DNA of 64,000 bases. Origin: Escherichia coli (lineage in GTDB: Bacteria; Pseudomonadota; Gammaproteobacteria; Enterobacterales; Enterobacteriaceae). Positions 2,797 to 58,729 of this stretch are shown piece after piece. Positions within the stretch are counted from its first letter, which is position 1, and every line of letters begins with the position of its first letter. The stretch lies in the NCBI RefSeq assembly GCF_051903065.1, contig NZ_CP178438.1. One strand, written 5' to 3'. The notes under the pieces are model-generated. The model made no database searches. It saw only the letters and a program-made list of their open reading frames with translations, and was not told where the DNA came from. Position numbers and translations under genes: made by a program.

Positions 2797-3321
2797 TCAG
2801 TTTTCCTCTTTTTTCATCTCAATCGCACTGGCGCGGATGTGCACCAGCAGGCGATAGTGGTGGCCGATACTTTCTACCGGCTCAATTTGTTTCCATTCTG
2901 TGGACTGGTCGTCTGAAAAATAGGCAATGACGCCGATATAACCGGTTTTCTCATCCAGCTTGATCGGCGGCAGTGTTTTTACGGTATCCGGCAACAGGTT
3001 GAAGTCCTGGTGATCGATATAGTTTTTCCCTAGCACGTCGGGCAGCGCGGTGGTGGCAACCTGGTCGTAGTCGGCGGCCTGGAATTTGGAGTCGTCGCTC
3101 AGATAAATCAGCTGGACATCCACCGGCGCGGCTTCGCCGTCCGCCGTCAGGTTGCTGTCCGGCTCGGTCAGCAGCGTGACGGTTAGCTCGGTTGACTGAT
3201 CCATCAGCTTTCCGACCTGAATATCCGGATTGCGGATCACCTGGCTGATTTTTTTCGCTGTTTCACAGCCAGTTAATACGACGCTCATCAGAACGCAGGC
3301 CAGAAACGCTTTGCCGTTCAT
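2797..3321 (-). CDS. tssJ: T6SS outer-membrane lipoprotein TssJ
   Basis: 174 aa; signal peptide with lipobox LTGC; 1-bp spacing to tssK. Confidence 0.85.
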   Translation of the reverse strand: MNGKAFLACVLMSVVLTGCETAKKISQVIRNPDIQVGKLMDQSTELTVTLLTEPDSNLTADGEAAPVDVQLIYLSDDSKFQAADYDQVATTALPDVLGKNYIDHQDFNLLPDTVKTLPPIKLDEKTGYIGVIAYFSDDQSTEWKQIEPVESIGHHYRLLVHIRASAIEMKKEEN

Positions 3322-4610
3322 GCTTCCGGCTCCCGCTGTTTTTCTCGCAGCACCCGGTCATAGACCTGGGCATAAACTTCATTGAACAGCATTTCAAATC
3401 CTTGCTGTCGGCTGGAGGCCAGCTCATCGTAATAGTTGCTGTACATCTGCCATGCCCAGGCGTCGTCCATTTTCTGGCGCAGTTCATGGCTGCGGCGGTA
3501 TTGCGCAAAGCGGCGCATCAGGTTGCCCGGCGAGAAGGCCTCCAGCATGACACGCAACGCTTCCACAATCGCCGCCCGGTTAGCCTCTTCATGATGCCGG
3601 ATGTTGCGCAGGCTTTCGCCGATGGCCGCGGGTGCTGCGAGATGTACCGGACTTTTACCCTCAGCGAACATGACGTTCAGCGCAGTGGCGTAGTCCATAT
3701 CAAGGCGAAGCGGGTTGTCTTCCAGTGGACGCAGGTGTTTATCCGACAGGCTGTTCTGTTGTTGTTGCAGGCTCAGCAATCCCTTAATGGCAGCCTGCAA
3801 CGCCCGTCCGGCCTCTTCGAGAAACTCATCCGCATCCTGAGAATCGTGCAGCGTCAGCGGGCACTCCATACCGCGCAGCAGCGGGGTCACGGCCAGGTGG
3901 TACTGCGCCATGGCAGAAAATTCATCGTCGTCCTCATAACGGGCATTGCCGGGCGGCAGATCCATAAACGGCGTATTGATCCCGTTTGCACCTGTCAGTT
4001 CGGAGGCGAGGGCGACGGGCCGGGAAACGCGTGGTGCGATCGGATCATCTGCCACCATCAGGCTTTCCGTCTGGAGTGCCTGGAGCGGATCGCTGGAAAA
4101 ACCGTGCGCCACCGTGGGGGCAAGCTGATGCTGGAACGGCATTCCCGGATAGGACGGTTGTCCCTCGGTGGTCAGCAGGGTGTCCGCCAGACTGTCGCGG
4201 TTCATCACAATCGTTTCCGGGGTTGCCATCCGCTCGTCGTAGGTGACAGCCGCGCCGTCATGCAGAAACGCTTTCAACGCCAGTGCACCGAGCTGGATCT
4301 CATCCCCTTGGCGCAGGCGGATGAGCGCACCGGAAGAAACCGGGGCCAGATTAATCATCAGTCCCGGCGTCAGGCACCGCAGGCAATAGGCTCCGTCGTG
4401 CCGGATAACGGTACAGGCACGCGCAGCAATGCTTCCCGCCCGATCCTGTACCTGCCAGTGACATTCCGGCGTATGACCAATATCACCGCCGTTTTCGCTG
4501 AACAGGCATTTTGCGGCGCGTCCGCTTTCCAGTTCGTTGCCATTCATCACCTGTAAAGTCAGTGAGGCCTGGCGGGATTGCTGTTTTTCCTCAGCCATAA
4601 GTGGTTCCAT
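3318..4610 (-). CDS. tagH: T6SS-associated FHA-domain protein (TagH-like)
   Basis: Start moved to the internal ATG at 4610 (MEPLMAEEKQQ...), which follows the tssG stop; FHA-like N-domain (GHTPECHW...IRHDGAYCLRCLTPGLMINL). Confidence 0.75.
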   Translation of the reverse strand: MEPLMAEEKQQSRQASLTLQVMNGNELESGRAAKCLFSENGGDIGHTPECHWQVQDRAGSIAARACTVIRHDGAYCLRCLTPGLMINLAPVSSGALIRLRQGDEIQLGALALKAFLHDGAAVTYDERMATPETIVMNRDSLADTLLTTEGQPSYPGMPFQHQLAPTVAHGFSSDPLQALQTESLMVADDPIAPRVSRPVALASELTGANGINTPFMDLPPGNARYEDDDEFSAMAQYHLAVTPLLRGMECPLTLHDSQDADEFLEEAGRALQAAIKGLLSLQQQQNSLSDKHLRPLEDNPLRLDMDYATALNVMFAEGKSPVHLAAPAAIGESLRNIRHHEEANRAAIVEALRVMLEAFSPGNLMRRFAQYRRSHELRQKMDDAWAWQMYSNYYDELASSRQQGFEMLFNEVYAQVYDRVLREKQREPEA

Positions 4611-9411: not shown

Positions 9412-9915
9412 TTATTTCTGAACGGCGATACCCAGTTCTTGGATCAGCTGCTCGCGGCTGTCTTCGTTTTCCAGTAGCGCCTGAAGTTGTGCGCGGAAGG
9501 CCGGAATATTGCCTAGTGGAGACTTAAGTGCGACCAGAGCTTCACGCAATTCGAGAAGACGTTTTATTTCTGGTACCTGGCTGGCAATATGGTCCGGAGA
9601 AAGGTCATCCATAGATTTGACTTTCAGGTTGACGTACATTTGCTCATTGGGAGCGTCACTGAGTTCAGCCGGAACAACAAACTCCCGTTCAATGTCAGCT
9701 TCTGAAATGACTGCGTTGAGGTTATAGCGGTTGATAGCAATGGCAGTTCGCTCGTCCAACGGCGTGTTATCTGGTTTCCCTTTCAGATTGCCGGTGATCA
9801 ATAAATTCAGCGGCAATTCGATATCAGCAGCCACCCCATCAACTTTTGGTGTATACCGAACGCTGATTCTTTCTTTCGGCGCGACACTGCCGCCATTGTT
9901 GTTCATTTTGCTCAT
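9412..9915 (-). CDS. tssB: T6SS contractile sheath small subunit TssB
   Basis: 167 aa, VipA/TssB-like (RISVRYTPKVDGVAADIELPLNLLITGNL...). Confidence 0.9.
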   Translation of the reverse strand: MSKMNNNGGSVAPKERISVRYTPKVDGVAADIELPLNLLITGNLKGKPDNTPLDERTAIAINRYNLNAVISEADIEREFVVPAELSDAPNEQMYVNLKVKSMDDLSPDHIASQVPEIKRLLELREALVALKSPLGNIPAFRAQLQALLENEDSREQLIQELGIAVQK

Positions 9916-10493
9916 AAAAATGTTCCCGTTCAGGCCATGAGCACAGCATTTTCGTACTGCATAAAAATACCGAAGATACCGTTTCAGTGGCAGTTAGATA
10001 ATGTAACCTTCCTTCTGTTGTGATCAGTATTCTACTCATGAAATAAAATATTAAAAGAACTATTTATATTTTAGAAAGAGATGTATTCTTCCTTGCTAAT
10101 ATATTATAGTGAAATAAATTTTGGTATTTATAGACTTGGTGAATATGATTTTACGGTCAATAAAATACCATAATATATTGATTTATATGCATTTATTAAA
10201 TTGATTAATAAGTTTTATGTATGGTTTTATCAATTAATTAATTGCTGGCAATACATCATAAGGAATTCCTTTAAGGAATGTCTTAATTGCGTGCTGGAAC
10301 GATGGCGGAGTAAGTGTCGTAATAATTTGTTTTTGACGCGGCTGTGGATTTTTATGGGGGGGGAAGATACGTTATGGATAATTGTGCTGTTGAAGTTGAT
10401 ATATTTTTAGCTTATGTGACCGTGTTCTGAAATTGACTAAAAATATATTTAAACACCATAAAAGAGTTTTTCAGTAGGTGCTAATTACGTGTG

Positions 10494-10502
10494 CCTGTAA
10501 CT
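10494..10502. repeat. 9-bp target-site duplication CCTGTAACT (left copy) of the IS903 insertion
   Basis: Identical 9-mer directly abuts both IS ends (10494-10502 and 11560-11568). Confidence 0.85.
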
Positions 10503-11559
10503 GGCTTTGTTGAATAAATCGAACTTTTGCTGAGTTGAAGGATCAGATCACGTATCTTCCCGACAACGCAGACCGTTCCGTGGCAAAGCAAAAGTTCAAA
10601 ATCACCAACTGGCCCACCTACAATAAAGCCCTCATCAACCGTGGCTCCATAACTTTCTGGCTGGATGATGAAGCTATTCAGGCCTGGTATGAGTCAGCAA
10701 CACCTTCTTCACGAGGCAGACCTCAGCGCTATTCTGACCTTGCCATCACGACTGTGCTGGTCATTAAACGCGTATTCAGGCTGACCCTGCGCGCTGCGCA
10801 GGGCTTTATTGATTCCATTTTTTCTCTGATGAACGTTCCGCTACGCTGCCCGGATTACAGCTGTGTCAGCAGGCGGGCAAAGTCGGTTAATGTCAGTTTC
10901 AAAACGCCCACCCGGGGTGAAATCGCACACCTGGTAATTGATTCCACCGGGCTGAAGGTCTTCGGTGAAGGCGAGTGGAAAGTCAAAAAGCATGGCCAGG
11001 AACGCCGCCGTATCTGGCGTAAGCTGCATCTCGCCGTTGACAGTAAAACACATGAAATCATCTGCGCTGACCTGTCGCTGAACAACGTTACGGACTCAGA
11101 GGCCTTCCCCGGGTTAATCCGGCAAACCCACCGGAAAATCAGGTCAGCCGCCGCCGATGGCGCTTACGATACCCGGCTATGTCACGATGAACTGCGGCGT
11201 AAGAAAATCAGCGCGCTTATCCCTCCCCGAAAAGGTGCGGGTTACTGGCCCGGTGAATATGCAGACCGTAACCGTGCAGTGGCTAATCAGCGAATGACCG
11301 GGAGTAATGCGCGGTGGAAATGGACAACAGATTACAACCGTCGCTCGATAGCGGAAACGGCGATGTACCGGGTAAAACAGCTGTTCGGGGGTTCACTGAC
11401 ACTGCGTGACTACGATGGTCAGGTTGCAGAGGCTATGGCCCTGGTACGAGCGCTGAACAAAATGACGAAAGCAGGTATGCCTGAAAGCGTGCGTATTGCC
11501 TGAAAACACAACCCGCTACGGGGGAGACTTACCCGAAATCTGATTTATTCAACAAAGCC
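10503..11559 (+). mobile_element. IS903-type insertion sequence (IS5 family), about 1057 bp
   Basis: Terminal inverted repeats GGCTTTGTTGAATAAATC at 10503-10520 and its reverse complement at 11542-11559; internal transposase ORF; flanked by a 9-bp direct repeat. Confidence 0.9.
10535..11503 (+). CDS. IS903-group transposase
   Basis: 322-aa ORF (TTG start in the track; true start may be slightly internal); IS5/IS903-type transposase sequence. Confidence 0.85.
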   Translation: MKDQITYLPDNADRSVAKQKFKITNWPTYNKALINRGSITFWLDDEAIQAWYESATPSSRGRPQRYSDLAITTVLVIKRVFRLTLRAAQGFIDSIFSLMNVPLRCPDYSCVSRRAKSVNVSFKTPTRGEIAHLVIDSTGLKVFGEGEWKVKKHGQERRRIWRKLHLAVDSKTHEIICADLSLNNVTDSEAFPGLIRQTHRKIRSAAADGAYDTRLCHDELRRKKISALIPPRKGAGYWPGEYADRNRAVANQRMTGSNARWKWTTDYNRRSIAETAMYRVKQLFGGSLTLRDYDGQVAEAMALVRALNKMTKAGMPESVRIA

Positions 11560-11568
11560 CCTGTAACT
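11560..11568. repeat. 9-bp target-site duplication CCTGTAACT (right copy)
   Basis: See left copy. Confidence 0.85.
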
Positions 11569-11684
11569 CGAATAAAGAAAAGGGTGTGGTTCCTGATGTG
11601 AGCCGCATCACACTCTAACCCGTCGGGGATTAACGACGGGTTGTTCGTAAAACAGCAGTTGATAATTTCACAAGGAGTTCATAA

Positions 11685-12203
11685 ATTCCAACCCCATGTT
11701 ACATTTCAATTACAGGTCAGACCCAGGGGAACATCACTGCCGGTGCTTTCACCGCAGATTCTGTCGGCAATATCTACGTGCAGGGACACGAAGATGAAAT
11801 GCTGGTGCAGGAGTTTCTGCATAACGTTACTGTTCCAACCGATCCACAGTCTGGTCAACCTTCCGGGCAGCGCGCGCACAAACCGTTCATTTTCACCGTG
11901 GCGCTGAACAAAGCCGTTCCGCTGCTGTACAACGCGCTGGCCTCCGGTGAAATGCTGCCGAAAGTGGAGCTGCACTGGTGGCGTACTTCAGTTGAAGGCA
12001 AGCAGGAGCACTACTTCACCACACGTCTTACTGACGCGACGATTGTGGACATGAACCTGCACATGCCGCACTGCCAGGACCCTGCACAGCGTGAGTTTAC
12101 GCAATTGCTCGCAGTATCACTGGCATACCGTAAGGTTGAGTGGGAGCACATCAAATCCGGTACTTCTGGTGCCGATGACTGGCGTGCACCGCTGGAAGCA
12201 TAA
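11685..12203 (+). CDS. hcp: T6SS tube protein Hcp, apparent non-ATG (ATT) start
   Basis: Frame-0 translation IPTPCYISITGQTQGNITAGAFTADSVGNIYVQGHEDEML... follows a TAA stop at 11682-11684; AGGAG at 11673-11677 is 7 nt upstream of ATT 11685. The track called only the GTG at 11778. Confidence 0.75.
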   Translation: MPTPCYISITGQTQGNITAGAFTADSVGNIYVQGHEDEMLVQEFLHNVTVPTDPQSGQPSGQRAHKPFIFTVALNKAVPLLYNALASGEMLPKVELHWWRTSVEGKQEHYFTTRLTDATIVDMNLHMPHCQDPAQREFTQLLAVSLAYRKVEWEHIKSGTSGADDWRAPLEA

Positions 12204-12423: not shown

Positions 12424-14823
12424 ATGTCCTTAAAAGGTCTGCGCTTTACGCTGGAGATTGACGGCCAGGAGCCGGACACCTTTGCAGTGGTGAATTTCAG
12501 GTTAATCCAGAACCAGTCTTATCCGTTTGTGATGAGTGTGGATGTTGCCAGCGACTCTTTTATGCAGACGGCGGAGATGCTGCTGGAGAAGAAGGCGACG
12601 CTGGCCATCTGGCAGGGCGCGGTGGCGCAGCGTTATGTCACCGGCGTGGTGGCGGGTTTTGGTATGCAGGAGAACAATGGCTGGCAGATGCGTTATCACC
12701 TGCGTATTGAGCCGCCGTTATGGCGGTGCGGGCTGCGGCAGAACTTCCGTATCTTCCAGCAGCAGGATATCCGGACGATATCGGCCACGTTACTGAACGA
12801 GAACGGCGTCACGGAGTGGACGCCGCTGTTTTATGAGGACCATCCGGCGCGGGAGTTCTGTGTGCAGTACGGGGAGTCGGACCTGGCGTTTCTGGCGCGG
12901 CTGTGGGCGGAGGAGGGAATTTTCTTCTTTGAGCGGTTTGCGGCGGACAGTCCGGAGCAGAAGCTGACGCTGTGCGACGATGTGGCGGGGCTGTCACAGG
13001 CGGGAGAGCTTCCGTTTAACCCGGACACATCGGCAGGAGCGGAGACAGAGTGTGTCAGTATGTTCCGTTATGAGGCGTATGTCCGCCCGTCGTCGGTGCA
13101 GAGCCAGGATTACACGTTTAAGGTGCCGGACTGGCCGGGGATGTATGAGCAGCAGGGTGAGAACCTGAACGGACAGCTGGCGCAGTATGAGATATTTGAT
13201 TATCCGGGAAGGTTCAAGGATGAACAGCACGGTAAGGATTTCACGCTGTACCAGATGGAGAGCCTGCGCAGTGATGCGGAAAAGGCCACAGGGCAGAGTA
13301 ATTCACCGAAGCTGTGGCCGGGAACGCGGTTTACGCTGACGGGGCATCCGCAGAAGATGCTGAACCGTGAATGGCAGGTGGTACAGAGCATTCTGTCAGG
13401 GGACCAGCCGCAGGCGCTGCACGGCAGCCAGGGGAGAGGAACCACGCTGGGAAATCAGTTAGAGGTGATACCGGCGGACCGGACGTGGCGTCCACGGCTG
13501 CAAAGCAAACCGAAGGTGGACGGGCCGCAGAGTGCCATTGTGACCGGGCCGAAGGGTGAGGAGATATTCTGCGACGAACATGGCCGGGTACGGGTGAAGT
13601 TCCACTGGGACCGTTATCACGGGATGACGGAGGCGAGTTCATGCTGGGTGCGGGTATCACAGGCGTGGGCGGGGCCGGGGTTTGGTAACCTGGCGATACC
13701 GCGGGTGGGTCAGGAGGTGATTGTTGACTTCCTGAACGGAGACCCGGACCAGCCGCTGGTCATGGGCCGGACGTACCATGAGGACAACCGTTCGCCGGGG
13801 AGCCTGCCGGGGACGAAGACGCAGATGACGATACGGTCGAAGACCTATAAAGGAAGCGGATTTAACGAGTTGCGCTTTGAGGACGCCACCAGTAATGAGC
13901 AGGTGTATATCCATGCGCAGAAGAACATGGATACGGAGGTGCTCAACGACCGGACAACGGATGTGAAACATGACCATACGGAAACCATCGGTAACGACCA
14001 GAAGATAACGGTGGTGAAGGGTCAGACGGTTCAGGTCGGTACAAAAAAAGAGGGGGGCCACGACCAGAGTATCACGGTGGCGAATGACCGGTGCATCACG
14101 GTACGTAATGACCAGACGCTGCAGGTGACGAATGACCGGACGGTGAGCGTGAGTCACGATGACGGTCTGTACGTAAAAAATGACCGAAAGGTGACGGTGA
14201 AAGGGAAGCAGGAGCATAAGACGACGGGTAACCACATCAGCCTGGTGGAGGGGAAGCACAGCCTGGAGGTGAAGGGGGACCTGGCGGAGAAGGTGAGTGG
14301 CGCGCTGGGGATAAAAGTGGACGGGGATATCGTGCTGGAGAGCAGCAGCCGGATAAGCCTGAAGGTGGGTGGCTCGTTTATCGTCATTCAGCCGGGCGGA
14401 GTGGATATTGCCGGGCCGAAGATAAACCTGAACGGTGGGGGCAGTGCGGGGACACCGGTGGGGACGATGCAGCCGGCGGTGCTGGAGGCTCCGGAGGATG
14501 AGAGCAGTGATGATGGCAGTGATGACTCCGGAGAGGATAGTGGCAATCCCGCAGGGAGTGACGGAGGAGGTGATGGCGGTGACGATGAAGATGATCCTGA
14601 AAAATATACCCTCCAGTTCCATTTTACGGACGATGACGGGATACCGTATTCAGAGACGCAGTATATTGCCTTTTTTGAGGATGGCACACAGACGCGTGGT
14701 GAAACAGACAGAGAGGGATATACAGAAATATTTTATACAGATACAGCACAGGAAATTAAAGTCCAATTGTTATTTTCGGATGCTTTTTATATTGAGCCGG
14801 AGGGGCATTATGGCAGGGAATAA
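12424..14823 (+). CDS. vgrG: T6SS spike protein VgrG with acidic linker and C-terminal extension domain
   Basis: 799 aa; gp27/gp5-like body, repetitive beta-helix (VKNDRKVTV...), acidic Asp/Glu/Ser-rich linker, then a ~65-aa C-terminal domain. Confidence 0.9.
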   Translation: MSLKGLRFTLEIDGQEPDTFAVVNFRLIQNQSYPFVMSVDVASDSFMQTAEMLLEKKATLAIWQGAVAQRYVTGVVAGFGMQENNGWQMRYHLRIEPPLWRCGLRQNFRIFQQQDIRTISATLLNENGVTEWTPLFYEDHPAREFCVQYGESDLAFLARLWAEEGIFFFERFAADSPEQKLTLCDDVAGLSQAGELPFNPDTSAGAETECVSMFRYEAYVRPSSVQSQDYTFKVPDWPGMYEQQGENLNGQLAQYEIFDYPGRFKDEQHGKDFTLYQMESLRSDAEKATGQSNSPKLWPGTRFTLTGHPQKMLNREWQVVQSILSGDQPQALHGSQGRGTTLGNQLEVIPADRTWRPRLQSKPKVDGPQSAIVTGPKGEEIFCDEHGRVRVKFHWDRYHGMTEASSCWVRVSQAWAGPGFGNLAIPRVGQEVIVDFLNGDPDQPLVMGRTYHEDNRSPGSLPGTKTQMTIRSKTYKGSGFNELRFEDATSNEQVYIHAQKNMDTEVLNDRTTDVKHDHTETIGNDQKITVVKGQTVQVGTKKEGGHDQSITVANDRCITVRNDQTLQVTNDRTVSVSHDDGLYVKNDRKVTVKGKQEHKTTGNHISLVEGKHSLEVKGDLAEKVSGALGIKVDGDIVLESSSRISLKVGGSFIVIQPGGVDIAGPKINLNGGGSAGTPVGTMQPAVLEAPEDESSDDGSDDSGEDSGNPAGSDGGGDGGDDEDDPEKYTLQFHFTDDDGIPYSETQYIAFFEDGTQTRGETDREGYTEIFYTDTAQEIKVQLLFSDAFYIEPEGHYGRE

Positions 14824-15613
14824 TAATACTAGTGGGACTTCACAACCCGAGTCGCAAGTATGTGTAGTACCGCAAAAAATTACAAATAAATTTAAAATAA
14901 TGATGAGTAAGGCTTGTAAAGCACAGAAAATGGTTTTATTGAAAAGAGCAGATGATATTATGTCATGGGAGGGGGAACAACAACGAGATTTTATTAAAGT
15001 TTTTGGCCTTAAAGGCGAGGACATTATAAAAATCAGAAAAGTTGGGGAAGATACTGGGAAACGAATGCAAGCGAGACTATTCATAATGGATGGCATCAGA
15101 CGAATAATGACGATTGCAAATGGTTTGACGATCGAAAGCTATAAAGATTATACGAACTGCAATGAATTTGCTGCTTTTATTAGTCCACATCTTGATCCTC
15201 CTTACATTGTAAATATCGGAGCGCATTTTGAATACAGACATGGTATAAAACAGTCGGTTACAGGTAGAGACTCTCATGTAAGTACACTTTGCCATGAAAT
15301 GTCCCATATATTTTGGTATTGGGGTGACAATCAAAAAGGTGGTATGTGGACTCAGGATTATACGGGTATTAATAAGTTCGCAACAAGTAATAAGGATGAA
15401 GTTAGCTATGAGAAACATGTTTCAGTGGCTAATGATCTGGTTACATTGCGTAAAGATCAGTTATTTGAGAATGCATATAATGTTGAAAGATATTTTTATA
15501 TAAAATTAAATGATGAAGATATTGAAGCTCAAGATGAGAATATGTTAGCAAAAAAAGTAGAGGATAAAATAAAAGAGATAGAAAAATGTTTTGATGAGTT
15601 GACGGGGAAATAA
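14810..15613 (+). CDS. Putative T6SS cargo effector, HExxH zinc-metallopeptidase-like
   Basis: ATG at 14810 overlaps the vgrG stop; AT-rich; HEMSH motif encoded at 15293-15307. The track's longer 14435 start lies inside vgrG and is rejected. Confidence 0.55.
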   Translation: MAGNNNTSGTSQPESQVCVVPQKITNKFKIMMSKACKAQKMVLLKRADDIMSWEGEQQRDFIKVFGLKGEDIIKIRKVGEDTGKRMQARLFIMDGIRRIMTIANGLTIESYKDYTNCNEFAAFISPHLDPPYIVNIGAHFEYRHGIKQSVTGRDSHVSTLCHEMSHIFWYWGDNQKGGMWTQDYTGINKFATSNKDEVSYEKHVSVANDLVTLRKDQLFENAYNVERYFYIKLNDEDIEAQDENMLAKKVEDKIKEIEKCFDELTGK

Positions 15614-15614
15614 G

Positions 15615-16364
15615 ATGAAGAGGTTGGCTTTCTATAATCTAAATTATGTTGTACTGATGGTTTTTTTTCTTTGTTTTTTGCCATTATCTATTGCAATTGC
15701 AATAGATAATGAGAATCTTTTTGTAAAAAAATACAGATTCGGTTTTGAACGAAGAAGTGACAATGGGAAACCAATTATTTATCTTAGCCATAATTTAGCG
15801 CCAGAGGAAAATATAAGTAATGAATTAACAAATGATGTTGTTGTTAAATTGGTGGTTAAGCCACATGCTGAAAATATTTTAGCTACTATAACTTTTTATA
15901 ACAGTAGTACTAAATCGTATTTTCTCCCCAGAATATATTATCCAAAGAACTTCCAAAAAGGAAATGGAGATGTATTTGATGCTTTGTGTGATGACGAATT
16001 CTTGATTACATCAGGAAATATTAGCTTAGACTATCTAGGAGGCTTTTGTCCCTTTGAGCTTGATTTGAATTTGAGCCGATGGGTGGAAATTACGGCAGGT
16101 AAAAAAATATCTTTTGATGTAAAATTGAATGATATGCATTCATTTCTCCCCAGTTTAAATAATTATCATATAAAAACATTAAACTACAAACTTGTTAGGA
16201 GAAAATGGTTTGTATTAAAATCAATTAATGAAACATTCCTCTCTATTTTGATGAAAAGATACTCATGTAATGAATATGATTTTAGAGCTATATCATTTAG
16301 TGGAGAGGGATGTGATAATTATGAATTTGATAAAAATACGTTTTTTTTGTTAATCAAATATTAG
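15615..16364 (+). CDS. Signal-peptide protein, candidate cognate immunity protein
   Basis: Start 1 nt after the effector stop; N-terminal hydrophobic signal (VVLMVFFLCFLPLSIAIA); AT-rich. Confidence 0.5.
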   Translation: MKRLAFYNLNYVVLMVFFLCFLPLSIAIAIDNENLFVKKYRFGFERRSDNGKPIIYLSHNLAPEENISNELTNDVVVKLVVKPHAENILATITFYNSSTKSYFLPRIYYPKNFQKGNGDVFDALCDDEFLITSGNISLDYLGGFCPFELDLNLSRWVEITAGKKISFDVKLNDMHSFLPSLNNYHIKTLNYKLVRRKWFVLKSINETFLSILMKRYSCNEYDFRAISFSGEGCDNYEFDKNTFFLLIKY

Positions 16365-16600
16365 ATAAAGATGATGAGCAACATTCTGTTCATATTAGGT
16401 CTAATGAATTTTCCATCAATATCGATGGAAGCTTGGTAAAGCAACCTTATTGATTAAAATGTATCGCAGGTTTTATTTTCTGTAATGCTGGTGCATGTGC
16501 GTAAATATTTCTTAAGAGCCGGAAACACCTCTTCCGCCTTTATCGACGATAAACCTACCGCCAGAACCGGTGATGCCATTGACTGCGGTGGCGTGGTTAA

Positions 16601-16941
16601 AGGTGGAGGGCGATGTGGTGCTGGAGAGCAGCAGCCGGATAAGCCTGAAGGTGGGCGGTTCGTTTGTGGTCATCCATTCAGGGGGCGTGGACATCGTCGG
16701 GCCGAAAATCAATCTCAATAGCGGCGGTAGTCCGGGAACGCCGGTGCCGACGCTGCAACCGGCGGTTCTGAAAGCGCTGGCAGATGATAAAAGTTTAGCG
16801 GCTGAGCAAAATGATAGTAATGCATCGTCCGATCAGAATGATAACAACGATGAGGGTGAGGAAGCGCCAGAAAAATCGGTGTGTAAGGAGTGCCTGAAAA
16901 GGGCGCAGGAAGCCGCCGCCGCTTTTGCGCCTCGTGGATAA
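16601..16941 (+). pseudogene. Orphan vgrG 3' remnant with a different C-terminal tail
   Basis: Nucleotide and protein similarity to vgrG 14310-14470 (VLESSSRISLKVGGSF.V.IQ/HSGGVDI.GPKINLN.GGS.GTPV), then a divergent acidic tail; no vgrG N-terminal body upstream. Confidence 0.7.
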
Positions 16942-16947
16942 GGGAGA

Positions 16948-17718
16948 ATGACGATGATAACAGTATCGCCACGCGCTACCGATCAAGACAAATATATTAT
17001 CTGGCTGAAGCAGGCTGAATCATTCTGTTCTGCCGCTGGTTTGGATTACATAGATGTGCTTGTTGACCAGGCTGGAACCGACCAACCTTTGCAAAATGAG
17101 ATACTTCATCTGTGGCCAGCCATTCACTGGTATGCCCTGTTTGAAGGAACGCCTGAAGCTGAGACGATGGAGTATTCCCCTGTAGTGTTACGCCTGTACT
17201 TTGCGCTCAGTAGCCATCGCAAATTTCTGGCACAACTGATGGCGTCATTTGCTGATACGCCGCGTCTTACTTTGTTGATATCCCCTCTTACATTCGACCT
17301 GCTGGGGCGGCATCTTCAGGTATTGTCACAGGTTCAGTGGGAAGAACAGACCGGATTGCTGCGTTACTATGATAATCGGGTGTTCCCTTTACTGTTCACA
17401 CATGTTTTGACTAACGAGCAGCAGGCGACATTTACTGATATTGCGTTGTTCTGGAGCTGGTTAGACCGTGATGGTGAGATTAACTGGAAATCAGGAAGTT
17501 TTTCACCAGAACGCAGGCTTACTGACAACCCGGAGATGAATCGGGTGGATGATGTACAGGTGGGATTGATGGGCTGTATCTGCGACGCTGAAGTCCTGAT
17601 GAAGGAGAAAGCAGTCAGTGAACTCAGTCAGGAAAGCTATTTTGCCCACTGTCTTGATATTGCTTTCAGAGCCAATGACGCGAAATATTTCGGAGCTTTG
17701 CGGGACTTCGAAGGATAA
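16948..17718 (+). CDS. Putative T6SS effector adaptor (DUF4123-like), low confidence on family
   Basis: 256-aa ORF between the vgrG remnant and the immunity/effector pair; position and size fit adaptor/chaperone genes. Start may be the third codon (16954). Confidence 0.45.
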   Translation: MTMITVSPRATDQDKYIIWLKQAESFCSAAGLDYIDVLVDQAGTDQPLQNEILHLWPAIHWYALFEGTPEAETMEYSPVVLRLYFALSSHRKFLAQLMASFADTPRLTLLISPLTFDLLGRHLQVLSQVQWEEQTGLLRYYDNRVFPLLFTHVLTNEQQATFTDIALFWSWLDRDGEINWKSGSFSPERRLTDNPEMNRVDDVQVGLMGCICDAEVLMKEKAVSELSQESYFAHCLDIAFRANDAKYFGALRDFEG

Positions 17719-18061
17719 TATTGTGGTGATGTACGGGGAGATTTATCTGTTTAAAAGTCCGTAGCTGTTAATATCAAGAGATAATCGTGAAATAAACGGA
17801 AAATCAAGCTCGACATGTAATGGTAGTATCCATCATGTTGCATTTGTGTTCGATCGTAATGTCAGTTCACTTGGCTGCAATATATTTTGCGTAATATCAT
17901 CAATGCTCTGTCGATATTCCAATGTGTGACAATCGAAAGATATGCATTTTATTTGCTTCTTTGTCAAAACTTTATTGTCGTAGAAACAATACCCATCAAT
18001 TAAAATCTCTCAAAGTAAAAGAACCAGCAACATGTCCAGCAAAATAAGGAAAAGTATCAGT

Positions 18062-18586
18062 ATGAGAGCGATTTTCAAATGTTATTCTCTAATGATTTTA
18101 TTTGCAGTATCAGGCTGTTCAATGGCAAAAAATAGCGGTGATTACACTGCTGTGGATATTAATGGGATAAATCATACGGATAAGGATATAAATTATATAC
18201 ACATCAATGGTTACGGCGGACCAAATATTGGTCCATTCGGAGACGGTGGAGGATATTGTTGCGTTATGCTGCCAGATAAGTGGCATTCTGGATTAAAAGC
18301 CCAGGTTGAATGGGAAATTACCCCAAATACAGTACCTCCGCCACCACTCTATAAGGATTGGGATAAATATCAGGCCTGGGAGAAAAAACTAAAAGAAAGT
18401 TACATTCAACATACCGCAATTGTTGATATCCCGGAATACGATGCTGAGCTTTGTGGCCTGACCGTTCATTTTCTAACGTGTAATCAGATTAAAGTGACAA
18501 CCGTCTGCCAGAAGTATGGCACACCGAATTATCCCATCAAAGAACCCCGCGAGATGAAGGAACCAGCAACATGTCCAGCGAAATAA
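18062..18586 (+). CDS. Lipoprotein, Tli-like candidate immunity for the adjacent lipase
   Basis: MRAIFKCYSLMILFAVSGC lipoprotein signal; AAGGA ~12 nt upstream. The track start at 18032 lies inside a duplicated 3'-end repeat and is rejected. Confidence 0.6.
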   Translation: MRAIFKCYSLMILFAVSGCSMAKNSGDYTAVDINGINHTDKDINYIHINGYGGPNIGPFGDGGGYCCVMLPDKWHSGLKAQVEWEITPNTVPPPPLYKDWDKYQAWEKKLKESYIQHTAIVDIPEYDAELCGLTVHFLTCNQIKVTTVCQKYGTPNYPIKEPREMKEPATCPAK

Positions 18587-18602
18587 GTGGTCTGGCTTTT
18601 CC

Positions 18603-20663
18603 GTGTTATGCCCCCCAGCGTTTCCTGAAAATGGGCGATTAATATTATCTGAAGCGCAGGTAAACGCGAACTACCTAAAACAAATCAATAAAACAGAAGA
18701 GCACAAAACCAACTGTAGTAAACAGGCTGGATTTAGAATTGGCTTTACGTGTAATCAAAGTCTGCATATTAGTCTGTTTTTTGATGGTACAAATAATAAT
18801 GAATATAATGACACTCCTGGACACCCAATCAATATTGCCAAACTGTTTCATACGACCTATCAGAACGCAGAAGAACAGGGATATTTTAACTACTATATAC
18901 CGGGTGTAGGCACACCATTTCCCAAGATAGGTGAAATGGATTACAGCAACAGCGGGCTGGAGTTCGCTACTGGTGGTGAAGATCGAATTAATTGGGCATT
19001 ATTACGCCTCGTGGATGCCCTGAGCTATTCCATTGACCCTTCCCATAAGCGACTGGATGATAATGTGGCAAAAGAGCACATTCCTCTTATGCGCGCTCCC
19101 TGGCCTATGACTGGTGAAGTGAATCGTCGCAATGTGATTAACCCCTACCTGGAAAAATTACAGGGACTGTTAGAGCAAGCCAGTCCGCGCCTGCTAAACG
19201 TAAAGCTGTTTATCTACGGATTTTCCCGTGGCGCAGCGGAAGCACGAACTTTTGTTAACTGGTTGACTCAGTTAGCTTGCCCGCAGGAGCAACAGGTGAT
19301 GCTGGCCGGGTTAGCTGTCAGTATTGAGTTTTTGGGGCTGCTGGATACCGTAGCTTCTGTGGGGGCGGCGCATGTTTTACCGGGCGCTGCCGGTCATATG
19401 GGATGGGCCGATAGTACTCAGCAACTCCCTGATGAGAGGCAGTTTCCCGGCCTGATTAAATGCTGCCGCCACTTCGTTGCCGCGCATGAGCAGCGGCTGT
19501 GCTTTCCGCTGGATTCAATCCGTCGTCCAGACGGAAATTATCCTTTAAATGCAGAGGAAATTATCTATCCGGGGATGCACTCTGATGTCGGTGGTGGCTA
19601 TCCCGTTCGCGATCAGGGGAAGTCCTGTGGTGACTCAGGCGAAATTCTTTCTCAGATAGCACTGCATGATATGTATCTTGCTGCATTTGATTCAGGAGCA
19701 CCACTTGCTGTTTATTCTAAATTTGTTACTCCATTAATAAAAGGTGTGTCGCCTCTGCGAATTATGAGTCCTTCTAGCGTAAAGGAATTTACGATTGCTA
19801 ATTCATTAACAAAACGCTTCAACATCTGGCGACAAACGCTGCTGAACACCACCTTGCAGGGTACAGAAGAAATGATTGATACGAGGGAAGGTTATCACTC
19901 CTATCAACTTGCCCAGGTTCTTGAAAGCGCAATTAGCGATCAGATCGGCTGGATCACCGCCTGGCGTATCGGTCGCTATGCGAATAACAGCCTTCTTGTG
20001 CAACCTTTTTATATTAAGGCGCCACAGCTGGATAAAGATGGACTTGATAAAGAGGCTAAAGCGCGTAAAGAACAAATGGAAAATATTGAAAAAGAGCGGG
20101 CGAACAAGCAGAAAGGGAATGGCACACTTGATGAAAGTAATCAGGGCATTCCTATCCTTGACCCAACCAATGCTCAGTATCAGTTGCGAGAGGCAGCCCG
20201 AGAATTTCAGAGCGATTATAAAGGATGGACGCGCGATATTAACGGCAGCGTCATGGAGAAAGCCATTCAGATTCTTGTGGATGTCATTCCTAAATATCCG
20301 GTGTATCTGATTAATGGCGATGATGAAGCAAAAGAATATCAGCAAATTAAGGCTATGGGAGACGGACTCTATCCACAATTTTTTATTGATTCACTGGGAA
20401 CGGGAACGCGTACTCAGCCCTGCGCTGAATTACTGGCTCTCTATGATGACCAGGTTCACGACTCCCGCGCCTGGTTTATGCAAAGTTCGCTGGGTGGACG
20501 CGAACCCTGGGGCGGTTATTTTCGCTACCGCATGATTTACTTCGGTGATGAGGCTAATAAAGAGCTGAAGCTAATCTCTGCAGATGGCAAAGTTGTTGGT
20601 GATCAGCCCACATCCAACCGGGTCATTTATTGGATGGAATCGAAAACGGTGAGCCGAGGTTAA
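18603..20663 (+). CDS. tle1: T6SS phospholipase effector, Tle1-like (DUF2235, GxSxG)
   Basis: 686 aa; LFFDGTNNN N-terminal core motif and GFSRGA (GxSxG) at 19217-19234. Start codon uncertain: GTG 18603, no in-frame ATG upstream. Confidence 0.7.
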   Translation: MLCPPAFPENGRLILSEAQVNANYLKQINKTEEHKTNCSKQAGFRIGFTCNQSLHISLFFDGTNNNEYNDTPGHPINIAKLFHTTYQNAEEQGYFNYYIPGVGTPFPKIGEMDYSNSGLEFATGGEDRINWALLRLVDALSYSIDPSHKRLDDNVAKEHIPLMRAPWPMTGEVNRRNVINPYLEKLQGLLEQASPRLLNVKLFIYGFSRGAAEARTFVNWLTQLACPQEQQVMLAGLAVSIEFLGLLDTVASVGAAHVLPGAAGHMGWADSTQQLPDERQFPGLIKCCRHFVAAHEQRLCFPLDSIRRPDGNYPLNAEEIIYPGMHSDVGGGYPVRDQGKSCGDSGEILSQIALHDMYLAAFDSGAPLAVYSKFVTPLIKGVSPLRIMSPSSVKEFTIANSLTKRFNIWRQTLLNTTLQGTEEMIDTREGYHSYQLAQVLESAISDQIGWITAWRIGRYANNSLLVQPFYIKAPQLDKDGLDKEAKARKEQMENIEKERANKQKGNGTLDESNQGIPILDPTNAQYQLREAAREFQSDYKGWTRDINGSVMEKAIQILVDVIPKYPVYLINGDDEAKEYQQIKAMGDGLYPQFFIDSLGTGTRTQPCAELLALYDDQVHDSRAWFMQSSLGGREPWGGYFRYRMIYFGDEANKELKLISADGKVVGDQPTSNRVIYWMESKTVSRG

Positions 20664-23017: not shown

Positions 23018-23222
23018 TAATATCGTAATTTTGAAAATGGTAATCCTGTTCACGGCACCATAATTAGAGTTATGTCTTGTATCCGTTCAGTATAATTTCA
23101 CGAATGCTTTATTAACTGGATGCGTGACTGCCATTCATCAAATGACAAAGACGTCATCGCGATTGATGGAAAAGCACTTCCACACTCCTATGATAAAAGT
23201 GGTCGCAGGAGAGCGGGCTTTC
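23018..23222 (+). pseudogene. Second ISAs1-family transposase fragment (about 200 bp, direct repeat of 21095-21300)
   Basis: YGDFENG...[24 protein letters not shown]... segment is duplicated at both locations. Confidence 0.7.
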
Positions 23223-56526: not shown

Positions 56527-57714
56527 TCAGCTAAATAAATATGTAATAGCATAAGGCGTAAGTAAAAAGTAGAACCTAAATGTAAGATATAAGCCACATA
56601 AAACTATAATTCCTAATGAGGCAAAAACAACTTTCTGAACAAGCAATCTTGTGGTTAAACTATCAAATGTATCCTTTATATCTTCGTAAATAGCCTTGAA
56701 GTTATATTCTGCTTGTTGTTTTTTATGATTTAACTCATCATTTATTGCTGTTAAAGTTTGCCATTGATTAAATAGAACAAATAGAATCATAATAGTGAAG
56801 AACAATGCACCCAACACTACAGCTGTATTTATTAATGCTTGACTATCCCAACCATTAGCCTGCTTCATTTGAGTCGCAACGATAATTGTTGCGACGGGGA
56901 TACCTAATATCTGATTTTGTATGTCACTGAATACTTTATGTATTTTTCCCATCTCTTCTATTTTGGCTACTCGTAACTGATCCAGTATTTTCTCGTAAGA
57001 AAAACCAGAAACGAATACTTTGTATCCTTTTTGATAACTTTCATAAAGTTGTCCTAAATCCCTTAACATGAAGGAAAAAGAGGTTTCTTTAGTTTTAGAT
57101 TCACATGATGATTTTATGCTACTTGCTAAAATAGTAAGTTTTTGATCTTTATGCGTATCTTCTGCAAAGTTTGCGATCAAATTATGAATCAGATCTCCAT
57201 TAACATTCATAAGATCATCGCTAGAATAATTTACTGGAATTTTTAGTACGTTGGATTCGACGAATACCAATTCAAAATTTGTTTCATCTAAATAAGCAGA
57301 ACAATCTTTGAATAAAGTAATTAAGCTCAAAACATCTCTGTACTTGGATATAATAGCAGGCGACTTTTTATCCCTGTTGTGATAATTAAGTTCGATTATA
57401 AAGAAGTTACTGGCTTCCTTTATCCTATTTTTAGGATTTTTTAAATACTCATTAAAAGAGAAATGTAGCTGCCCCAATCGTAATTTGGGGGGGGTTATAT
57501 GTAAGGTTATAGTTTGGCCTAACTCAATGTTGCCAGATTCAAGGGTGATGCCAAAATCATGGGGATTCTCTGTGATATCGTTGATGATGTCACAGAGCTC
57601 CTCGTTTGAAAGAATGAGTGATGCTTCAGATAGGGTACCTGCAAATGTAGCGGCCTTGTAAATAGTCACTAAGTCTTTGAAGGTTCTCTGATTGTTACTG
57701 CTCATCCTCTTCAC
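56527..57714 (-). CDS. Hypothetical protein with two C-terminal transmembrane helices (cassette gene 2)
   Basis: 395 aa; hydrophobic segments ALINTAVVLGALFFTIMILFVLF and VVFASLGIIVLCGLYLTFRFYFLL; 20-bp overlap with the upstream gene; AT-rich. Confidence 0.6.
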   Translation of the reverse strand: MKRMSSNNQRTFKDLVTIYKAATFAGTLSEASLILSNEELCDIINDITENPHDFGITLESGNIELGQTITLHITPPKLRLGQLHFSFNEYLKNPKNRIKEASNFFIIELNYHNRDKKSPAIISKYRDVLSLITLFKDCSAYLDETNFELVFVESNVLKIPVNYSSDDLMNVNGDLIHNLIANFAEDTHKDQKLTILASSIKSSCESKTKETSFSFMLRDLGQLYESYQKGYKVFVSGFSYEKILDQLRVAKIEEMGKIHKVFSDIQNQILGIPVATIIVATQMKQANGWDSQALINTAVVLGALFFTIMILFVLFNQWQTLTAINDELNHKKQQAEYNFKAIYEDIKDTFDSLTTRLLVQKVVFASLGIIVLCGLYLTFRFYFLLTPYAITYLFS

Positions 57715-58729
57715 CTAATTCTGATAAAATCTCTGATCTTAGCGTATCCGGAATCTCGGTAAGTATCAATTTATCGTTTTCTGAATCATAAAGAACGCTG
57801 CCATCATGCAAGGCCGCACGCTCGAATTTCAGAGACCAATGTTTGGACTTTCCTTTGAAACTAACAAGCCCACGTATAACGTTGCCATCAGGCACGAACC
57901 CATCAGAGAACTCCAGATCGTCATTGGTTAACTTTTCAACTAACAACTCAGGAGCAGTTGGCCATATCTCGTTTGCAAAAACTTGAGTGTCGAAAGCTTC
58001 ACCAGAACGATTTAAATTTTTTAATTTTTCATGAGCCTTATTTAGGAACTCTTCACGTGCCTCTGGTTCAAAACCTCTTTCAGTAGCAAATTCTAAAAGT
58101 GCATTCCGTAATTTTGTTGTTTCTTGTTTGGCAATTAGAATATCGTTACAACCTAAAAACTTTTTGAAATAACCTGCTACTGAATTTTGCCCCTTTAGAA
58201 AGCTAATATATCTCTCTTTGCCATTCTGGCGCCCAGTTAAGTCAATTCGTCCCGCTACTCGAAGTTTAGCAATGTCTAGATATTCACTTTCTTGAATTTC
58301 AAAATCGTGGACTGAAGAGCCAACTGCTGATGTTAGGATTGCAACCATCAAATAATGATTTCCATTTACCTCATTATGGGCAATTATTACATAACCACCA
58401 GTAGACATTGATTCATCATCGGCTCTGGCTTTTAAATGATTGATCATTCGGATACTAGTATCATAAAAACTATGTGTTTTATTTACGAAATAATCATCAA
58501 CGATATTACCCATAGGGTAACTATCGCGGTCATCTTCAAATTTACCATATCCTTTACCTGCTCTCCCAGAGTACCTTTCAGTAAGTGCGTTAGAGAGGTC
58601 TTTTGATGCTTGCTGAACAGGTTTTTCTGAAGGACAAGGAATAATGGTGGCTAACCCCTGTTGTTCCTTGTTCATAATGTGAACAATAAACTTATGAGTG
58701 ATATTAGTGGGGGTCGCTGATGCAGTCAT
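57695..58729 (-). CDS. NdpA/YejK-like nucleoid-associated protein homologue (cassette gene 1)
   Basis: 344 aa; blocks GGYVIIAH...YLMVAILTS, LDIAKLRVAGRIDLTGRQNGKERYISFLKGQN...FKKFLG and a C-terminal LILTEIPDTLRSEI mirror YejK (GGFVLFCH, LDLDKMQLASRIDLTAWQTNSDRYLSFLKGKNG...FLHFLG, LTIKGTPPNLRDQL). Confidence 0.7.
   Translation of the reverse strand: MTASATPTNITHKFIVHIMNKEQQGLATIIPCPSEKPVQQASKDLSNALTERYSGRAGKGYGKFEDDRDSYPMGNIVDDYFVNKTHSFYDTSIRMINHLKARADDESMSTGGYVIIAHNEVNGNHYLMVAILTSAVGSSVHDFEIQESEYLDIAKLRVAGRIDLTGRQNGKERYISFLKGQNSVAGYFKKFLGCNDILIAKQETTKLRNALLEFATERGFEPEAREEFLNKAHEKLKNLNRSGEAFDTQVFANEIWPTAPELLVEKLTNDDLEFSDGFVPDGNVIRGLVSFKGKSKHWSLKFERAALHDGSVLYDSENDKLILTEIPDTLRSEILSELGEEDEQ

Follow-up and report, generated by a model that had tools for sequence, protein, structure and literature searches.

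The DNA analysed here, called the window throughout, is a 64-kb stretch of Escherichia coli DNA that contains part of a T6SS cluster. In the annotation of the near-identical genome 23CRST027 the cluster lies between tRNA-Asp (aspV)/yafT and yafV-ivy-fadE. The T6SS of EHEC Sakai occupies the same chromosomal slot, and the system at that slot is named T6SS-2 in the literature (PMC13141884). We identified the locus as the E. coli T6SS-2 of the aspV island. Its genes are arranged as a structural operon (tssB...tssM-vasL-hcp) that diverges from an operon of hcp, vgrG and effectors, with an intergenic region of about 700 bp between the two and another hcp gene at the distal end of the cluster. The same divergent layout has been described for the T6SS2 of APEC (PMC5874247) and for EHEC (PMC13141884).

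The proteins TssB, Hcp and VgrG all scored above the curated thresholds of their families (Table 1). Compared with Sakai, Hcp was 94% identical and TssB only 54%; the locus therefore belongs to a sub-lineage distinct from the EHEC cluster. The hcp gene beside vgrG, which is the one meant by hcp in the following, is designated hcp2B by inference from the gene architecture. The distal hcp gene, of the Hcp2A type, was intact in the sister genome. A two-gene prophage insert was submitted to PADLOC and gave no match.

Table 1. Positions of genes, IS903B features and native control DNA in the window.
Feature	Position	Strand	Remarks
tssB, contractile sheath small subunit	9412..9915	-	TIGR03358, 172 bits; PGAP annotation of 23CRST027; first gene of the structural operon diverging from hcp
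Native tssB/hcp control DNA left on the tssB side	9916..10502	.	587 bp; includes the original target CCTGTAACT copy at 10494-10502; σ70-like candidates in both directions
Left 9-bp target-site duplication CCTGTAACT	10494..10502	.	IS-free relatives have one copy
Left terminal inverted repeat, IS903B	10503..10520	+	18 bp perfect; similarity reaches 33 nt at 79%
IS903B DDE transposase ORF	10535..11503	+	Uninterrupted; NF033579 match; oriented toward hcp
Right terminal inverted repeat, IS903B	11542..11559	-	18 bp perfect
Right 9-bp target-site duplication CCTGTAACT	11560..11568	.	Directly abuts the right end of IS903B
Native DNA left beside hcp	11569..11684	+	116 bp; two stem-loops (~11583-11609, ~11616-11643); RBS AAGGAG at 11672-11677
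hcp, Hcp2B-type tube protein	11685..12203	+	TIGR03344, 206 bits; start codon ATG->ATT
vgrG	12424..14823	+	799 aa, intact in the window; TIGR03361, 599 bits; second gene of the hcp-vgrG operon

An IS903B element between tssB and hcp

The intergenic region is interrupted by an intact IS903B element at 10503-11559 (plus strand, 1,057 bp). IS903B is a DDE transposon of the IS5 family that cuts its target with a 9-bp stagger. Over its full 1,057 bp the window copy was 100% identical to many E. coli copies named 'IS5-like element IS903B family transposase' by PGAP; the name IS903B was assigned via these PGAP-annotated copies in E. coli genomes. The terminal inverted repeat GGCTTTGTTGAATAAATC occurred exactly twice in the 64-kb window, once at each end of the element and in opposite orientation. 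The transposase ORF encodes 322 aa when read from TTG, or 307 aa from an in-frame GTG at 10580, and reached 357 bits against the NCBIfam model NF033579 (IS5 family transposase; cutoff 140). The transposase protein in 23CRST027 is WP_000654812.1. The GC content of the element was 53%. By every defining feature tested, that is length, 18-bp repeats, 9-bp duplication, ORF and identity, the element belongs fully to IS903B.

The 9-bp sequence CCTGTAACT was likewise found exactly twice in the window, abutting the two ends of the element. Recurrence of a given 9-mer at one fixed position has a probability of 4^-9 = 3.8e-6. In the nearest IS-free relatives a single CCTGTAACT was present at the exact insertion point, and the element was therefore inserted precisely, with duplication of its target. 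The element is separated from tssB by 587 bp and from hcp by 125 bp; through the insertion, 1,066 bp were added between hcp-vgrG and the whole of the upstream control DNA (587 bp). The empty site was rebuilt in silico by removing the IS and one copy of the repeat. The rebuilt 703-bp intergenic region had a GC content of 33%, falling to 19-23% in its core, compared with 55% in the flanking T6SS genes.

A 120-bp probe of the left junction was searched among 5,426 complete E. coli genomes and was fully matched in only two, 23CRST027 and 23CRST031, both of which have an IS903B annotated at the same place. The window showed zero mismatches to 23CRST027 (from human faeces, Ecuador) in the aligned parts of 1-62450, the differences consisting of 1-bp homopolymer changes and two extra IS1 copies in 23CRST027, and it was almost identical to 23CRST031. 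Two draft genomes also bear on the site: a contig of GCA_037286885.1 crosses the identical left junction and continues for 98 bp into the IS, and a contig of GCA_025874605.1 begins 8 bp after the end of the IS, breaking at the insertion site. IS903B-like sequence as such is widespread (1,993 of the 5,426 genomes). The two complete carriers are rich in it, with 20-21 IS903B places each against a median of 2 places per genome that match the left-junction probe.

Matches to the rebuilt empty site were found in 581 genomes, and in 551 of these the match covered at least 80% of its length; the 703-bp intergenic region was found in 552 genomes. The nearest IS-free relatives, ECNB21-M121, GCA_044079575.1, GCA_048109125.1 and GCA_024773585.1, differed from the window by few SNPs across the cluster. 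A comparison with IS-free alleles had been proposed with the initial annotation of this DNA; it gave about 550 genomes with an empty site against a junction in 2 of 5,426, and the IS was absent from nearly all relatives. We concluded that the insertion is real, precise, recent and confined to one clone. The initial annotation had described an IS903 with intact inverted repeats, a full-length transposase and a perfect 9-bp target duplication, inserted recently and precisely in the AT-rich region between tssB and hcp/vgrG with its transposase toward hcp. All of this was confirmed, the element being specifically IS903B. Two RefSeq genomes already have the insertion in their annotation, and neither the element nor its mode of insertion is new.

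Control DNA and leader of hcp

In EHEC the counterpart of this intergenic region is reported to be bound and repressed by H-NS, and its promoter has been described as unknown (PMC13141884). In the T6SS2 of APEC both directions are repressed by H-NS, and hcp2B is derepressed in an hns mutant (PMC5874247). APEC O1 carries the region at 91% identity. The control region in the window is presumably coated with H-NS as well. A re-analysis of IS903 transposition found the insertions to concentrate in H-NS-bound DNA (PMC11335895), so that a landing at this place would be as expected of IS903.

The 116 bp of native DNA left beside hcp was conserved in E. coli, E. albertii, E. whittamii, Citrobacter, Pseudocitrobacter and Yokenella. 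The second of its two stem-loops folds at -17.4 kcal/mol (z = -2.0), and the pairing was kept via one-sided and some two-sided changes, which were compensatory in 2 of 8 pairs. Judged by these features, the retained 116 bp look like a transcribed leader rather than a promoter. The cross-species footprinting drew on five loci from other species, too few for the promoter to be localized from them.

Promoter predictions placed the hcp candidates on the far side of the insertion. In a consensus scan the single σ70-like match within the retained DNA (11659-11687) overlapped the RBS and the start codon, and the other plus-strand σ70-like sites were one inside IS903B and the remainder at 10121-10179. 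In a PWM scan of nine orthologous regions the better hcp candidates were all located upstream of the insertion, for most taxa between about -160 and -205 relative to the start codon, and the same type of scan on the rebuilt empty-site allele returned zero candidates in the DNA kept beside hcp. The promoters predicted for the tssB side, 10284-10255 and 10199-10170, are still contiguous with tssB. A σ54-dependent hcp promoter was also considered (TGGCAC-N5-TTGCW with up to 3 mismatches) and rejected; matches were fewer than in shuffled sequence, and none in the control region was convincing.

It had been suggested that the IS probably cuts hcp-vgrG off from its promoter or regulator-binding sites. 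The σ70-like candidates upstream of the insertion and the leader-plus-RBS character of the 116 bp speak for such a displacement from promoter and regulator sites, which we regard as plausible yet unproven, since the position of the promoter is a predicted one. Kim et al. reportedly mapped transcription starts in EHEC in 2022. The further suggestion of the initial annotation, that an outward promoter of the IS could drive hcp-vgrG, was not borne out. A consensus scan of the sequence across and beside both IS903B junctions, covering outward as well as hybrid promoters, found no promoter-like site, and the best hybrid that could be read by eye, TTCAAC-17-AATAAA, was weak. A literature search returned no report of an outward promoter in IS903 and nothing relevant on IS elements upstream of hcp. 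From the transposase stop codon to hcp there was no terminator-like site. Some read-through from the transposase promoter, which is weak, may occur. On these predictions IS-driven expression of hcp appears unsupported.

The start codon of hcp and the tssM stop

The distance to hcp of about 125 bp given in the initial annotation holds if hcp starts at 11685, but it had been overlooked that the codon at 11685-11687 is ATT and not ATG. An in-frame TAA immediately precedes it. The first canonical start further on is a GTG at 11778, and initiation there would remove 31 conserved residues of Hcp. ATT was present in the window, 23CRST027, 23CRST031 and the draft GCA_025874605.1. ATG was read in every other allele (about 20 loci), among them 042, LF82, N96, 729_021014, SCU-176, S1-ISR-02-A, ECNB21-M121, Sakai, twelve draft genomes and five other species. 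With a 61-bp probe centred on the start codon, the ATT form was matched exactly in 2 of 547 complete genomes, which were the two IS carriers, and the other 545 differed.

That the same PGAP protein accession is used everywhere could be taken to mean that ATT is normal for this hcp family. We rejected this, because the other alleles have ATG and the ATT probe was matched exactly in IS carriers only. Draft assemblies were searched by the exact TssC, VgrG and TssA proteins, and among them there was no genome with the IS and ATG, nor one with ATT and no IS. In all carriers that could be read for both features, the IS and ATT occurred together.

Initiation at AUU reaches about 1-2% (0.02-3%) of that at AUG in E. 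coli, and natural AUU starts have been confirmed only for infC and pcnB (bioRxiv 10.1101/063800). By this measure the ATT start would be a severe hypomorph for a protein that is required in bulk, with some initiation still allowed. PGAP annotates the ATT-start hcp as intact.

A further lesion was found in tssM. Over 10.3 kb upstream of the window 23CRST027 and ECNB21-M121 differ by one base, which creates a stop at codon 694 of 1,175 in tssM. 23CRST031 is annotated with the same internal stop, and tssM was intact in the IS-free relatives; the tssM loci read in the draft search were from a set that holds no IS carriers. As tssM lies outside the window, we infer the stop in the window's own genome from 23CRST027 and 23CRST031. 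Frameshifts in vgrG and in the transposase of 23CRST027 and 23CRST031 were considered as additional lesions and rejected; each is the loss of 1 bp in a G4/C4 run, the window lacks them, and they are probably assembly errors.

Three lesions of loss-of-function type among about ten mutational events in the 33-kb cluster are the signature of an unmaintained T6SS. The ATT start of hcp and the tssM stop therefore shift the reading of the IS from regulatory rewiring to one lesion among several. With these two lesions it probably no longer matters whether hcp is activated or silenced by the IS, as the system is probably non-functional either way.

Origin and consequences of the insertion

We consider it fairly likely that a hop of a resident IS903B into H-NS-type DNA displaced the control of hcp-vgrG and, together with the ATT start of hcp and the tssM stop, forms part of a recent inactivation of T6SS-2 in this clone. 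A clone that already held about 20 copies of IS903B would have supplied the element, and a single recent transposition would have brought it into the divergent region, which is AT-rich and presumably coated with H-NS. The hcp promoter or promoters would lie upstream of the insertion point, and native transcription would have to cross the whole IS. The expression of hcp-vgrG would then most likely be lowered by polarity and not raised. T6SS-2 would be non-functional or in the course of being lost in the clone, and the IS would be one of three lesions, tolerated under relaxed selection or selected for loss, and not a regulatory innovation.

The insertion could also be a neutral passenger that leaves expression unaffected, either because the hcp promoter lies within or beside the retained 116 bp or because the operon is too tightly silenced for the IS to matter. 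A random hop is easily pictured in a clone with about 20 copies of IS903B, for which the chance of one landing in the cluster of about 33 kb is about 13%. The T6SS-2 of EHEC, APEC and S. sonnei is silent in laboratory conditions (PMC13141884, PMC5874247, PMC10924462). Conservation across genera begins at about -110, and a transcription start near there is conceivable. However, such a start would put the -35 element at or left of the insertion, that is, the IS would split the promoter, and no acceptable -10/-35 pair was found in 11569-11660. The regulator and H-NS nucleation sites would be displaced in any case. We therefore regard an insertion without effect as possible and rather unlikely.

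Quite improbable, in our view, is a regulatory gain, in which the IS would raise the expression of hcp-vgrG and the downstream effectors. It could do so by relieving H-NS silencing, with 1 kb of 53%-GC DNA placed between the AT-rich core and hcp, or by transposase read-through or a hybrid promoter, and the ATT start would then be a secondary down-tuning of an Hcp made in excess. Such a role has precedents, as IS5-family elements are known to activate the H-NS-silenced operons bgl, flhDC and glpFK, and the transposase faces hcp with no terminator-like site in between. It is also favoured by other insertions near hcp. S1-ISR-02-A carries an IS5 with the target CTAA at -182 to -179 from hcp, and in SCU-176 an IS1 junction lies at -142, within a rearrangement that truncates vgrG and tssB. 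These two, found among the 552 genomes and both just upstream of hcp, together with IS903B at -125 to -117 amount to three independent IS events inside 66 bp (-182 to -117) of the 703-bp region. All three elements have their transposase oriented toward hcp. If insertions were placed uniformly, such clustering would have p ~0.025 and a shared orientation p = 0.125, values that hint at a local hotspot or at selection.

Against a gain stand the lack of a σ70-like promoter spanning or abutting either IS end, the weakness of the hybrid site and the outcome of the literature search on IS903, all described above. The documented insertion of IS903B in a promoter region inactivates its gene (PMC10513040). 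The loss of the hcp start and the nonsense codon in tssM oppose selection for more T6SS activity, and the IS1 rearrangement in SCU-176 is a disruptive one. By our estimate, two or three insertions among 552 genomes are moreover about what the random genome-wide IS load would give.

An extension of this idea would make -182 to -117 upstream of hcp2B a recurrent landing pad for IS5-family elements and IS1, used in one orientation. Insertions there would rewire the expression of hcp2B, vgrG2 and the effectors independently of the structural operon, via H-NS derepression or IS read-through, and ATT in place of ATG would serve to throttle, in compensation, an hcp derepressed by the IS, and would not be simple decay. 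We think this very unlikely.

That an IS copy was misplaced by a repeat-collapsing or long-read assembler has a negligible probability, since nothing specific points to it beyond the homopolymer indel errors that the sister assemblies do have, whereas the window shares its junctions with two independent complete assemblies, one short-read draft contig crosses the left junction by 98 bp and another draft contig breaks exactly there, and the perfect 9-bp duplication is a signature of real transposition.

The insertion resembles one at mgrB of Klebsiella, where IS903B at -27/-26 inactivates the gene and causes colistin resistance (PMC10513040). The 1,057-bp element and its 9-bp direct repeats are common to both cases, as is its position tens of bp upstream of a small gene whose coding sequence it leaves untouched, in IS903B-rich clones (clinical ones at mgrB). 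The IS cuts mgrB off from its promoter, and would do likewise with hcp. At mgrB, however, the IS lies inside the core promoter, was strongly selected by colistin and has a measured phenotype. The insertion described here, at -125/-117 with a promoter that is only predicted, is known from sequence alone.

The locus also resembles the 'transposon capture' of IS5-family elements by H-NS (PMC11335895, which for IS903 re-analysed the data of Swingle et al. 2004), in that the target is AT-rich and horizontally acquired, that H-NS silencing is reported for the EHEC and APEC counterparts, and that IS903, IS5 and IS1 entered the same short stretch in different strains. It differs from it in that the insertions cluster beside the most AT-rich core and not inside it. 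IS1 and IS5 are known as activators of the H-NS-silenced operons bgl, flhDC, glpFK and fucAO. With these the present case shares an IS5-family element in fixed orientation upstream of a silent operon of the H-NS-repressed type. Here, however, the start codon of hcp was lost, the reverse of what would be expected under selection for expression.

The decay of T6SS-2 itself has been described in Shigella sonnei and EHEC, in which independent inactivating lesions (an IS in tssM, stop codons, frameshifts) were found and the system is silent in vitro (PMC10924462, PMC13141884). The chromosomal island and the architecture are the same as in the window. The lineage is another one and so are the lesions, namely an IS in the control region, the loss of the hcp start and a nonsense codon in tssM.

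Taken by itself the insertion matters little: IS903B has inserted here in textbook fashion, and the affected system is probably inactive. The ATG to ATT mutation of hcp and the tssM stop are what the present analysis adds. The carriers and the IS-free genomes ECNB21-M121 and GCA_044079575.1, from which they are separated by a handful of SNPs, form a natural allele set for dissecting the divergent control region of T6SS-2. The 'intact' call of PGAP on the ATT-start hcp is a caution for annotation, because surveys of gene presence would count this T6SS as complete. The closest relatives of the clone have an apparently intact cluster, and the decay would therefore be very recent. The clone would thus be an example of very recent, multi-hit loss of a T6SS in E. 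coli of the human gut, which fits the recurrent decay of T6SS-2 in Shigella and EHEC.

Mobile elements at the hcp control region and elsewhere in the clone

Two further insertion sequences were found close to the IS903B site upstream of hcp, an IS5 in S1-ISR-02-A and an IS1 in SCU-176. Both were independent insertions lying at most 66 bp from the IS903B site, and in all three elements the transposase was oriented toward hcp. The IS1 of SCU-176 belongs to an inversion that truncated both vgrG and tssB. The sister genome 23CRST027 carried two copies of IS1, of 768 bp and 767 bp, with junction points corresponding to window positions 23059 and 31597. As the window does not contain these copies, it and 23CRST027 represent different isolates or assemblies of one clone. 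We concluded that IS1 too is active in the clone comprising the window and 23CRST027.

The two-gene insert of the thrW prophage was flanked by the Q antiterminator and the holin and lay on the opposite strand. Moron or defence genes usually occupy this position. Neither insert protein was matched by PADLOC.

Features of the window and of loci in other genomes
Feature	Location	Strand	Details
Two conserved stem-loops, hcp 5' leader	window 11583-11643
Second stem-loop of hcp leader	window 11616-11643		loop GGGATTAA
IS5 insertion, S1-ISR-02-A	L007 3747-4941		window-equivalent 10437-10440
IS1 insertion, SCU-176	L012 about 3233-4000		window-equivalent 10476/10477
Effector-rich region downstream of vgrG	window approx. 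14808-20660		M35 metallopeptidase overlapping 3' end of vgrG, with 249-aa partner; vgrG C-terminal fragment; Tla1 chaperone / Tli1a immunity / Tle1-like phospholipase module, with ISAs1 remnants after it
Two-gene insert, thrW-integrated lambdoid prophage	window 56527-58729	-	395-aa hypothetical protein; 344-aa "nucleoid-associated protein"

Sequence differences in vgrG and the transposase

Compared to ECNB21-M121, an IS-free close relative, vgrG carried 12 substitutions within 75 bp (12604-12678) and nearly none elsewhere. This segment resembles a short tract exchanged by recombination or gene conversion; the window itself holds no donor copy, and the window's version was common to several IS-free relatives. 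The "frameshifted" vgrG and IS903B transposase of 23CRST027 and 23CRST031 were traced to 1-bp losses in GGGG/CCCC runs (window 12871, 13399 and 11107). We rejected these as true lesions, since the runs are complete in the window, and they are thus probably long-read assembly errors.

Lesions in tssM and the hcp start codon, and the conserved hcp leader

In both sister genomes residue 694 of the 1,175 in tssM, a gene lying upstream of the window and outside it, was replaced by a nonsense codon (L013 18402, NZ_AP045789.1; L015, NZ_AP045800.1), the sole difference to ECNB21-M121 over 10.3 kb. In another E. coli with T6SS-2 (GCA_964290345.1, L042 5963-9482) tssM was broken into ORFs of 434 aa and 680 aa by a different lesion, and this is an independent case of T6SS-2 decay.

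The second hcp-leader stem-loop was conserved in E. coli, E. albertii, E. whittamii, Citrobacter, Pseudocitrobacter and Yokenella, some of the changes in it being compensatory, and may serve to control hcp2B post-transcriptionally. The start codon of hcp itself was ATT instead of ATG (window 11685-11687). An exact match to the ATT probe was found in only 2 of 547 complete genomes, and one draft also has ATT; on these sequences the ATT start is clone-specific. PGAP called the ATT-start hcp intact under the usual protein accession, and the altered start would therefore be overlooked by presence/absence surveys.
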